Shown here: piece by piece, positions 57,572 through 60,406 of the stretch
How positions within the stretch are numbered: position 1 is the first letter of the stretch
Layout: every line of letters begins with the position of its first letter
DNA from: Escherichia coli
Lineage (GTDB): Bacteria > Pseudomonadota > Gammaproteobacteria > Enterobacterales > Enterobacteriaceae
Direction: 5' to 3' (one strand)
Length of the DNA: 64,000 nt
Assembly: GCF_022846255.1 (NCBI RefSeq)
Contig: NZ_AP025682.1
Program-made: the position numbers and the translations under genes
The notes under the pieces: generated by a model
The model's database searches: none
Told to the model about the DNA's origin: nothing
Seen by the model: only the letters and a program-made list of their open reading frames with translations

Positions 57572-60406
57572 GTGAATATGGCAGTAAAGATTTCAGGTGT
57601 CCTGAAAGACGGCACAGGAAAACCGGTACAGAACTGCACCATTCAACTGAAAGCCAGACGTAACAGCACCACGGTGGTGGTGAACACGGTGGCCTCTGAA
57701 AATCCGGATGAAGCCGGGCGTTACAGCATGGACGTTGAGTACGGTCAGTACAGCGTTATTCTGTTGGTGGAGGGGTTCCCGCCATCACATGCCGGGACTA
57801 TCACCGTGTATGAAGATTCTCAACCCGGTACGCTGAATGATTTTCTCGGTGCCATGACGGAGGATGATGCCCGTCCGGAGGCACTGCGCCGTTTTGAAGT
57901 GATGGTGGAAGAGGTGGCGCGTAACGCGTCCGCAGTGGCACAGAACACGGCAGCCGCGAAGAAGTCAGCCGGCGATGCCAGCACATCAGCCCGTGAGGCG
58001 GCAACCCATGCGACTGATGCTGCAGACTCAGCACGCGCAGCCAGCACGTCAGCCGGACAGGCCGTGTCGTCGGCTCAGTCAGCGTCTTCCAGCGCAGGAA
58101 CGGCATCAGCAAAGGCCACTGAAGCATCAAAAAGTGCTGCCGCTGCAGAGTCCTCAAAAAGCGCGGCGGCCACCAGTGCCGGTGCGGCAAAAACGTCAGA
58201 AACGAATGCTTCAGCGTCACAACAATCAGCAGCCACTTCTGCATCCACCGCGACTACGAAAGCGTCAGAAGCTGCCACCTCAGCCCGGGATGCGGCGGCC
58301 TCAAAAGAGGCAGCGAAATCATCAGAAACGAACGCATCCTCGAGCGCCAGTAGTTCCGCTTCCTCGGCAACGGCGGCAGGAAATTCCGCGAAGGCGGCAA
58401 AAACGTCCGAGACGAACGCCAGGTCTTCTGAGACGGCAGCGGGACAGAGCGCCTCAGCTGCGGCAGGCTCAAAAACAGCGGCTGCATCATCTGCCAGTGC
58501 CGCGTCAACAAGTGCCGGGCAGGCCTCAGCCAGTGCCACTGCCGCCGGAAAATCGGCAGAAAGCGCTGCATTGTCCGCTTCAACAGCCACAACGAAGGCT
58601 GGCGAAGCCGCTGAACAGGCCAGCGCAGCAGCGAGGTCTGCTTCCGCAGCGAAGACATCCGAAACGAACGCGAAAGCGTCGGAAACCAGCGCAGAATCCT
58701 CAAAAACGGCAGCCGCATCGTCCGCCAGTGCGGCGGCGTCATCGGCATCATCTGCGTCTGCTTCAAAAGATGAGGCGACCAGACAGGCGTCAGCAGCGAA
58801 GGACAGTGCCACGACGGCATCCACGAAGGCGACAGAGGCTGCTGGCAGTGCGACGGCGGCAGCACAGAGCAAAAGTACGGCAGAATCCGCCGCAACGCGC
58901 GCTGAGACAGCAGCAAAACGGGCAGAGGATATTGCATCCGCCGTGGCGCTTGAGGATGCAAGCACGACGAAAAAGGGGGTAGTACAGCTCAGCAGTGCGA
59001 CCAACAGCACTTCCGAGTCACTGGCGGCAACGCCAAAAGCCGTTAAGGCCGCGTATGACCTGGCTAACGGGAAATATACCGCTCAGGACGCTACGACAGC
59101 ACAAAAAGGAATTGTCCAGCTCAGTAGTGCAACCAACAGCGCATCTGAAACGCTTGCTGCGACATCGAAAGCAGTGAAAGCAGCTAATGACAATGCGAAT
59201 GGTCGGGTACCTTCTGCCCGTAAGGTGAATGGTAAGGCGCTTTCAGCGGATATAACACTGACACCGAAAGATATTGGTACGCTTAACTCAACAACTATGT
59301 CATTCAGCGGTGGTGCTGGTTGGTTCAAATTAGCAACGGTAACCATGCCGCAGGCGAGTTCTGTTGTTTCAATTACGTTGATTGGTGGGGCTGGATATAA
59401 CGTCGGTTCACCTCAACAGGCAGGTATATCTGAACTTGTTTTGCGTGCAGGTAATGGTAATCCGAAGGGGATTACTGGTGCTTTATGGCAGCGCACATCG
59501 GCAGGGTTTACAAATTTTGCCTGGGTCAATACATCTGGTGATACTTACGATATTTACGTTGCAATCGGAAATTATGCGACTGGTGTAAATATTCAATGGG
59601 ATTATACCAGTAATGCCAGCGTAACGATTCATACGTCACCAGCATATTCTGCTAATAAGCCGGAAGGGTTAACGGACGGTACAGTTTATTCACTCTATAC
59701 GCCATCAGAGCAGTTTTATCCGCCTGGCGCACCAATCCCGTGGCCATCGGATACCGTTCCGTCTGGTTATGCCCTGATGCAGGGGCAGACTTTTGACAAA
59801 TCTGCCTACCCGAAACTTGCAGTCGCTTATCCGTCAGGCGTGATCCCTGATATGCGTGGCTGGACGATTAAGGGCAAGCCCGCCAGTGGTCGTGCCGTAT
59901 TGTCTCAGGAGCAGGACGGCATTAAATCGCACACCCACAGCGCCAGCGCATCCAGTACGGATATGGGTACGAAAACCACATCGTCGTTTGATTACGGCAC
60001 TAAATCCACGAATAACACCGGGGCGCATACGCACAGTCTGAGCGGCTCTACAAGCTCGGCCGGAGCACACTCGCACGTTGATGGTCGCAGGTTTAATACA
60101 AGCACTTTTAAAGACACCTATCAGTATGGTTCTACAGCTGTCGGAAGTAACTCATACCAGGTACAAGGGGCGGTTGGTCTGGGCATTGGCACGATGGCGA
60201 ATACGAACTCTGCTGGCGCGCATACCCACTCACTGTCCGGCACTGCTGCAAGCGCAGGTGCACACGCACATACTGTCGGTATTGGTGCTCATACGCACTC
60301 CGTTGCGATTGGCTCACATGGACACACCATCACCGTTAACGCTGCTGGTAACGCGGAAAACACCGTCAAAAACATCGCATTTAACTATATTGTGAGGCTT
60401 GCATAA
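57572..60406 (+). CDS. stf: side tail fibre protein Stf
   Basis: 944 aa; long Ala/Ser/Thr-rich repeat region; C-terminal repeats of GAHTHS / GAHAHT. Confidence 0.9.

Follow-up and report, generated by a model that had tools for sequence, protein, structure and literature searches.

An intact lambda-type side tail fibre gene of Escherichia coli with a predicted 49-heptad shaft and a T4 gp37-type tip

What kind of protein is encoded by an open reading frame (ORF) that carries a long tract of alanine, serine and threonine, and are the other long ORFs that overlap this tract genes in their own right? The question arises at positions 57572-60406 of a 64-kb stretch of E. coli DNA (hereafter the window), where the plus strand is open for 944 aa if read from a GTG. 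We conclude that the ORF very probably encodes the side tail fibre protein (Stf) of a lambda-like prophage, a modular homotrimeric adhesin made of a collar, a rod, repeat units and a T4-type tip. The gene type is an ordinary one, already known and well understood. The copy examined here is intact and belongs to a very common class of lambda-type prophage side tail fibre genes.

Protein family matches and gene order bear out the original prediction that the ORF is a side tail fibre gene. Pfam families detected in the translation are phage_tail_N (PF08400; E=4.1e-73 on the N-terminus), Phage_fiber_2 (PF03406, twice), Collar (PF07484) and Phage_fiber (PF03335), and PHROG tail fibre families match it as well. 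The order gpJ (53463-56846), Lom (56914-57513), Stf and Tfa is that of lambda. Ur-lambda Stf (UniProt P03764; collar PDB 9E7M/9MGH) has the J-lom-stf-tfa locus in common with the window, together with a stop/start overlap between stf and tfa, which here takes the form TAATG. In lambda PaPa a frameshift splits stf into orf-401 and orf-314. The gene in the window is intact.

Translation of stf probably starts not at GTG 57572 but at ATG 57578. The GTG sits within a Shine-Dalgarno-like GGGGTG, RefSeq starts the closest allele (98.8% identical) at the equivalent ATG, and the solved lambda chain (PDB 9E7M chain Ta), which opens with MAVKISG, aligns to query residue 3; because of these three observations we favour the ATG. 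Directly upstream lies a terminator-like hairpin with an 8-bp stem that includes 7 GC pairs, followed by TTTTT. By analogy with lambda, stf would then be read through only on an antiterminated late transcript. The features of the locus are collected in Table 1.

Table 1. Features of the stf locus in window coordinates. Residue numbers (aa), here and in the text, follow GTG numbering, in which the first codon is at 57572.
Feature	Coordinates	Strand	Basis or remark
Intrinsic-terminator-like hairpin, AGCCCGCC-GGTTCA-GGCGGGCT + T-run	57540..57566	+	after lom, directly upstream of stf
Shine-Dalgarno-like GGGGTG, AAT, then ATG (57578)	57569..57580	+	sequence reading
stf, side tail fibre gene	57578..60406	+	942 aa from ATG (probable start); TAA stop at 60404-60406
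Collar/attachment domain, aa 3-96	57578..57859	+	homologous to Ur-lambda gpStfN
Shadow ORF, 147 aa, antisense	57801..58244	-	spurious; frame shared with the 235-aa ORF
Predicted proximal coiled-coil rod, 49 heptads, aa 118-460 (343 residues)	57923..58951	+	periodicity, register, position-specific composition
Shadow ORF, 335 aa, R/Q/P-rich	57975..58982	+	spurious; +1 frame of rod
Shadow ORF, 311 aa, A/D/F/V-rich	58075..59010	-	spurious; antisense to rod
Shadow ORF, 235 aa, antisense	58254..58961	-	spurious
Two 44-aa Phage_fiber_2 units (58973-59104, 59105-59236)	58973..59236	+	PF03406 E=1.3e-34, 2 stretches
Predicted middle all-beta domain, aa ~572-686	59285..59629	+	AF2, 20-sequence alignment
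T4 gp37-type receptor-binding tip, aa 702-944: collar domain (Pfam Collar aa 719-766), needle, head	59675..60403	+	2XGF, PF07484, PF03335
HxH 1-3, His 787/789, 819/821, 833/835, outbound needle strand	59930..60076	+	aligned to T4 gp37 HxH 1-3
Variable head domain, aa ~836-880 (~45 residues), between HxH 3 and 4	60077..60211	+	unalignable to T4 or lambda
HxH 4-7, His 884/886, 898/900, 907/909, 916/918, return needle strand	60221..60325	+	aligned to T4 gp37 HxH 4-7
tfa, tail fibre assembly chaperone	60406..60990	+	Pfam Caudo_TAP (PF02413) E=2.7e-45; PHROG 105

The N-terminal domain is the part most closely shared with Ur-lambda. Over 94 residues it matches the solved Ur-lambda Stf chain (9E7M/9MGH) at E=5.3e-53 with ~95% identity. 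In Ur-lambda, gpStfN (residues 1-91) is followed by a linker and by a proximal coiled coil at residues 102-393 (PMC12617516). There gpStfN forms a dodecameric collar round the tail that carries four trimeric fibres, and the receptor bound is OmpC (PMC12617516).

The Ala/Ser/Thr-rich tract that follows was originally described as about 330 residues of low-complexity imperfect repeats at 57.95-59.0 kb. Its extent holds up well, with a core of 343 residues, and so does its repetitiveness. The label, however, undersells what is a register-perfect rod of 49 heptads. Delimited with a PSSM and a maximal-segment search, the heptads follow the pattern S-A-x-x-A-x-x in a single register with no interruption; serine occupies position 1 in 37 of the 49, and alanine occupies position 2 in 35 and position 5 in 46. 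Self-identity at all multiple-of-7 lags is 0.37-0.42 versus 0.22 after shuffling (z = 7-10), and alanine, serine and threonine together make up 60-83% of each 30-residue window between about aa 121 and 465. Heptads of the form SETNAxx break the rule that positions 2 and 5 carry small residues.

Structure prediction and homology both point to a helical shaft. A single-chain AF2 model, at moderate confidence (pLDDT 67.5), places helices at aa 100-253, 268-384 and 396-498, so that predicted helix starts at about aa 100, ahead of the first heptad; the modelled chain doubles back at two low-confidence turns. The rod of Ur-lambda Stf has the same S-A-x-x-A-x-x pattern, with identical first and last sequences, in 34 heptads versus 49 here. 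We read the Ala/Ser/Thr stretch as a long coiled-coil shaft, the predicted counterpart of the trimeric proximal coiled coil of Ur-lambda.

Between rod and tip lie two further modules. The two Phage_fiber_2 units are identical to each other at 75 of 132 nt, and Ur-lambda Stf has one such unit. Their motif, KG-V-QL-SAT-S-SET-AAT-KAVK, is shared with tail fibre S of Mu and with P2-type fibres (5YVQ, 8JU3) at E ~2e-8; this homology covers ~60 residues alone, the N-terminus, rod and tip being unrelated. The middle domain is modelled by AF2 with ~10 strands (pLDDT 64, pTM 0.66). Ur-lambda Stf has a different middle segment, from which this predicted all-beta domain is absent. A PDB sequence search with aa 544-713 gave no match even at E<=10, and Foldseek against the PDB returned weak tailspike-like matches alone for the domain (TM<=0.45, E>1e-3). 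Similar predicted domains do occur in other phage fibres, for example gp37 of Shigella phage JK38 (36% identity, E=7e-9).

The C-terminal tip is homologous to the tip of the T4 long tail fibre. Compared by phmmer with the T4 gp37 crystal structure 2XGF, it scores E=7.8e-88, with 163 of 246 positions identical (66%), and the alignment to gp37 residues ~785-1026 takes in the collar, the needle and the C-terminus from end to end; identity to lambda orf-314 is 72%. The metal-binding T4-type tip proposed from three quoted HxH motifs is therefore a matter of homology, and the motifs number seven: KSHTHS, GAHTHS, GAHSHV, GAHTHS, GAHAHT, GAHTHS and GSHGHT, in this order. All seven, with their 14 ligand histidines, stand in register with the seven of T4 gp37. 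When the C-terminal 162 residues were shuffled 20,000 times, the count of HxH never came to seven (mean 1.1, maximum 6). Iron coordination by the HxH motifs of T4 gp37 is credited to Bartual et al. 2010 in passages of PMC11705849 and PMC5221442, and conservation of every ligand histidine suggests that the needle here may bind iron as well.

Several differences set this tip apart from its relatives. The needle of lambda has eight HxH, one extra unit compared with the seven here, and a 10-aa SFDYGTKTTG duplication that is missing from this allele. In T4 the tip sits on the long fibre of a myovirus; here it sits on the side fibre of a siphovirus, and the adjacent chaperone gene is a lambda-type tfa (Caudo_TAP) rather than a T4 gp38-type gene. 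The head domain differs too: it is ~15 residues longer than that of T4 and unrelated to it in sequence, and it is likewise unrelated to the head domain of lambda. T4 host-range residues 939-955 fall in the equivalent segment (PMC5221442; PMC9659904), and by this analogy the head between HxH 3 and 4 is presumed to determine receptor specificity. Since neither T4 nor lambda has a related head, OmpC specificity is not transferable to this allele.

We considered whether the Ala/Ser/Thr stretch might instead be a disordered, slippage-prone repeat that changes copy number quickly in the manner of a contingency locus and is itself an assembly hazard. Its extreme composition, with A+S+T up to 83%, would suit such a sequence, as would the short degenerate DNA repeats that exist within it and the different heptad numbers of more distant alleles (47, 45, 34, 32, 30 or ~18, against 49 here). 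Yet the DNA itself is not a tandem array: Tandem Repeats Finder (TRF) reported just two trivial 9-nt matches and no array of near-identical head-to-tail units in the rod, and identity between the best of the degenerate copies is 64-88%. With no tandem repeat at the DNA level, the periodicity belongs to the protein, as a heptad whose register is perfect across all 49 units, whose predicted structure is helical, and whose homologous segment in Ur-lambda is a trimeric coiled coil (PMC12617516). The idea that repeat number may vary is correct across allele classes, which differ in heptad number, but not among close alleles: of the 118 close relatives in which both anchors of the rod were located, 114 match its length, while two lack exactly 4 heptads and two others differ by 3 aa. 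Complete rod classes differ by whole heptads and, at the same time, in their distal modules, a pattern that recombination fits and slippage does not. The slippage-prone reading is largely refuted and we hold it to be very improbable. A still smaller chance attaches to the proposal that one or more of the long ORFs overlapping the rod, such as the 311-aa antisense ORF, is a real gene. These ORFs are long (147-335 aa), the lambda reference still annotates the counterpart of the 311-aa ORF, orf206b, as a CDS, and 63% of substitutions are synonymous in the 311-aa frame, close to the 68% of the stf frame and far above the 16% of the 335-aa frame. The 63% figure, however, is a geometric by-product of wobble positions common to the antisense frame and stf; the test sets the stf frame apart from four other frames, not from the antisense frame that shares its wobble positions. 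Open alternative frames are, moreover, to be expected in DNA so depleted in T. The rod is 11.9% T, and 1.7% at codon position 2, and its frames contain 0/0/8 stops (plus strand) and 28/1/1 stops (minus strand); the long shadow ORFs stand open because GCN/TCN/ACN codon usage keeps the rod T-poor. Among 38 alleles pre-filtered for an intact stf frame, stops break the 311-aa ORF in 20 (at 58864), the 235-aa ORF in 17 and the 335-aa ORF in 8, and a Pfam search matched no family in any of the four. As originally suspected, then, the four long overlapping ORFs are spurious: they follow from composition and are not conserved among relatives.

A different concern is whether the gene itself is sound, or whether it is the decaying, now functionless relic of a defective prophage or a chimera that assembly made from stf paralogues. 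Of 5426 complete E. coli genomes, 5081 contain a match to this gene. That stf-like sequence occupies a median of 2 places per genome, and up to 16, would suit such a reading. Most database relatives are marked partial and end at contig ends. The region downstream of tfa is rearranged, with a duplicated tfa end and a methyltransferase between the copies; no tRNA was found at the prophage ends, and an att search found no shared repeat of at least 13 nt between 15-27 kb and 60.9-64 kb. Against this, full-length (2835 nt), single-piece, gap-free matches at 96-99% identity in several complete genomes show the frame to be intact and collinear. The allele WP_223024330.1 (E. coli VCSW7) is of equal length and identical at 934 of 942 residues, with the same neighbours J, Lom and Tfa, and WP_182111076.1 (E. 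coli MBT-5), with 916 identical residues, has the same downstream arrangement of methyltransferase and tfa remnant; RefSeq names both alleles 'prophage tail fiber N-terminal domain-containing protein'. Polymorphic sites fall 58/51/196 on the three codon positions of the stf frame, which together with the synonymous fraction of 68% points to purifying selection. All tip histidines are kept, stf is present just once in the window, and a complete lambda-type late operon lies upstream. Decay or chimerism is therefore improbable, if somewhat less so than slippage in the rod.

Length variation among relatives of this intact stf is real, and its frequent kind is found not in the heptad rod, where variation in repeat number had been suggested, but in the 44-aa Phage_fiber_2 unit. 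Two copies are present here and one to three in alleles that share the rod and tip; a third unit (+132 nt) is found in MBT-5 and in many STEC genomes. A change in copy number of this unit does not come about by slippage, since the copies, 57% identical here, are too diverged.

How might a fibre of this design work? We infer its trimer stoichiometry, iron binding, shaft length and adsorption function; four trimeric fibres per virion and faster adsorption are established for Ur-lambda alone (PMC12617516). Stf would speed the initial step of adsorption, in which the virion attaches reversibly to the outer membrane. The collar would dock the fibre on the tail and pass through a short linker into the 49-heptad helical coiled coil, in which alanine at both core positions and flanking serine would make a stiff spacer of ~50 nm. 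Beyond the spacer would come the two Phage_fiber_2 units, the predicted all-beta domain and the gp37-type tip, where each chain would run out to the head and back to form a six-stranded needle. The seven HxH of each chain would be placed for seven metal ions on the three-fold axis, with six histidines per ion, and the head domain would touch the receptor. Tfa, encoded downstream and translationally coupled, would act as the chaperone that folds the tip.

A more speculative proposal, which we regard as rather unlikely, is that heptad number and 44-aa unit number set the reach of the fibre and are under selection to suit how thick the O-antigen or capsule layer of the host is, and that the head domain specifies a receptor other than OmpC of K-12. 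If it were true, shaft length would be a host-range trait that can be read from the stf genes of E. coli prophages in general.

Beyond correct annotation, the significance of the locus is small. In annotation, stf should start at ATG 57578, the four shadow ORFs should be left uncalled, and the Ala/Ser/Thr region should be described as a coiled-coil shaft, not as disordered low complexity. Stf modules of this kind are in use for retargeting lambda-derived delivery particles (PMC11338833), so cataloguing the shaft lengths and heads that occur in nature has some applied value.

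The ORF analysed here is securely a lambda-type side tail fibre gene, stf. Tail-fibre families extend along its whole length (PHROGs), and its Pfam matches comprise phage_tail_N (E=4e-73), two copies of Phage_fiber_2, Collar and a 14-residue Phage_fiber repeat. The window carries chromosomal genes up to ~21.7 kb and a lambda-like prophage thereafter, whose late operon contains terminase gpA and a tape measure protein and closes with gpJ, Lom, stf and Tfa. A single stf copy is present in the window, and its stop overlaps the start of the chaperone gene tfa (TAATG), as in lambda. 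Of 5426 complete E. coli genomes, 5081 contain a match, which is full-length in 1389; the top match, 98.8% identical, is annotated as 'prophage tail fiber N-terminal domain-containing protein'. The protein belongs to the lambda Stf family as a standard, previously annotated and already known member, and its tip is of the T4 gp37 type. NCBI lists four database relatives (P0002, P0013, P0023, P0029) under the name 'short-chain fatty acid transporter, partial', evidently a propagated annotation error.

Features of the stf region and its surroundings, in window coordinates
Feature	Position	Strand	Remark
BD-FAE / alpha-beta hydrolase ORF	30627-31670	-	esterase-like; opposite to late genes
gpJ	53463-56846		late operon, before Lom
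Terminator-like hairpin	56865-56884		after gpJ
Lom	56914-57513		between gpJ and stf
Strong terminator-like hairpin	57540-57561		after lom, before stf; T-run to 57566
stf ORF	57572-60406	+	mechanical ORF from GTG
Shadow ORF	57801-58244	-
Rod, 49 heptads	57923-58951		aa 118-460
Shadow ORF	57975-58982	+
Shadow ORF	58075-59010	-	311 aa
Shadow ORF	58254-58961	-
44-aa Phage_fiber_2 unit	58973-59104
44-aa Phage_fiber_2 unit	59105-59236
Tfa chaperone	60406-60990		directly after stf
tfa 3' end, first copy	60814-60968
Class I SAM-dependent methyltransferase ORF	61045-61713	-
tfa remnant	61770-62039	+	C-terminal half only
tfa 3' end, second copy	61863-62017
479-aa ORF	62434-63873	+

The start region reads GGGGTGAATATG, immediately 3' of the strong hairpin. 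The GTG at 57572 lies inside a Shine-Dalgarno-like GGGGTG, the closest allele is annotated in RefSeq from the ATG at 57578, and the solved Ur-lambda Stf chain begins MAVKISG, matching query residue 3. The true start is therefore most likely ATG 57578, giving a protein of 942 aa; residues are numbered here from the GTG. The hairpins after gpJ and between lom and stf suggest an insulated lom unit and a reliance of stf on antiterminated late transcription.

The Ala/Ser/Thr-rich stretch described in the original prediction is present, with A+S+T making up 60-83% of residues over aa ~121-465. Its repetition is real, yet it is not generic low complexity but a register-perfect coiled-coil shaft. Self-identity peaks solely at multiples of 7 (z=7-10 versus shuffles, up to lag 56), and 49 successive heptads share one register, with Ser at position 1 in 37, Ala at position 2 in 35 and Ala at position 5 in 46, placing Ala at both core (a/d) positions. 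An AF2 model of a single chain (aa 96-560, pLDDT 67.5) is helical all along, interrupted only by two low-confidence turns where the chain, modelled alone, doubles back. Allowing ~0.15 nm for each of its 343 residues, the rod would reach ~50 nm. Counted by heptads in the same way, the lambda rod has 34, and an 'SKTAAAS' heptad stands on either side of the 15 extra heptads here, which fits an in-register internal duplication.

The long spurious ORFs noted on both strands of the rod are present, and these four shadow ORFs are artefacts. Rod codons are almost exclusively GCN, TCN, ACN, AAA, GAA and similar, and T makes up 11.9% of bases (1.7% at codon position 2). This T-poor usage leaves few stops in most frames (0/0/8 on the plus strand, 28/1/1 on the minus strand, the 28 being complements of in-frame TCA codons) and so explains the overlapping ORFs. 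No Pfam family was found for any of the four. In 38 distinct alleles, each with a gap-free 49-heptad rod, polymorphic sites number 58, 51 and 196 at stf codon positions 1, 2 and 3, and synonymous changes make up 68% of substitutions when read in the stf frame. The corresponding 63% for the 311-aa ORF, read antisense, is uninformative because that frame's wobble positions are shared with stf. Stops interrupt shadow ORFs in 20, 17 and 8 of these alleles. The lambda equivalent, orf206b (NC_001416, L083 1648-2268, minus strand), lies antisense to the Stf rod, and the reference genome continues to list it as a hypothetical protein.

The stretch separating the 44-aa units from the tip has no counterpart in lambda. 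AF2 with a 20-sequence alignment predicts an all-beta domain there (aa ~572-686, pLDDT 64, pTM 0.66), for which searches of the PDB by sequence and fold gave no match; it resembles predicted domains of other phage fibres, including gp37 of Shigella phage JK38.

The tip bears out the proposed likeness to T4-type fibres. Residues 702-944 align with 2XGF, the crystal structure of the receptor-binding tip of T4 gp37 (E=7.8e-88), and the tip shares 66% identity with T4 gp37 and 72% with lambda orf-314. Seven HxH motifs, a number reached in 0 of 20,000 shuffles, align one-to-one with the seven of T4 gp37, whereas lambda has eight owing to an extra 9-residue unit. Complete conservation of the ligands suggests that the Stf tip would bind metal. 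Bartual et al. are said to have described, in 2010, a six-histidine, octahedral iron geometry for T4 gp37. Passages on Bartual et al. 2010 in two later papers (PMC11705849, PMC5221442) place seven iron ions, held by the T4 HxH motifs, on the needle's three-fold axis. The head domain, here aa ~836-880 between HxH 3 and 4, corresponds to the T4 segment in which host-range mutations at residues 939-955 lie (PMC5221442; also PMC9659904). Lambda Stf and T4 share OmpC as receptor (PMC12617516); because the head domain aligns with neither counterpart, the receptor of this stf allele cannot be inferred.

Downstream, tfa is followed by a second copy of its 3' end (155 nt, 92% identity between the two), and the copies flank the methyltransferase ORF and tfa remnant, a region that looks like a moron inserted through recombination between tfa genes. 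E. coli MBT-5, which has a close stf allele, is annotated with the same arrangement, adjoining ompT. Beyond a junction at ~62.15-62.2 kb, the 479-aa ORF lies in DNA of 30-37% GC, its sole domain match a weak Ser_hydrolase; MBT-5 has an unrelated alpha/beta hydrolase in its place. No complete E. coli genome has 60400-64000 as a single piece; strain TB06052 has a 'hypothetical protein' region that matches the right half at 99.7% identity. On its left the prophage adjoins LysR-family genes (~21.7-22.6 kb), and the BD-FAE / alpha-beta hydrolase ORF within it may be cargo. No tRNA gene was found across the window, no direct repeat of at least 13 nt common to 15-27 kb and 60.9-64 kb, and the few ORFs scanned included no apparent integrase; the prophage may therefore lack recognisable ends.

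Gap-free full-length matches of 2835 nt, present in several complete genomes, argue against assembly collapse in the window. The hazard that assembly does face is prophage paralogy, as shown by up to 16 related places per genome and database entries that are mostly 'partial'. Slippage is not expected, since the rod contains no DNA tandem array. A comparison of the 120 closest database relatives yielded 118 sequences containing both rod anchors, the query and 117 relatives: rod length is identical in 114, 28 residues (4 heptads) shorter in two and off by 3 residues in another two. The predicted variation in repeat number holds for a different element: between close alleles, copy number varies in the 44-aa unit rather than in the heptads. 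Many STEC genomes have a 2967-nt match, the additional 132 nt being exactly one more unit directly after the rod, and the unit count ranges from 1 to 3 among alleles that agree in rod and tip; the two units here are identical at just 75 of 132 nt. More widely, 80 viral-contig loci with collar identity of at least 94% fall into discrete rod classes of 49, 47, 34, 32, 30 and ~18 heptads, each paired with a particular distal end (e.g. ...YIVRLA, ...LTGSEH, ...LFVRVR), as recombination that exchanges modules would be expected to produce.
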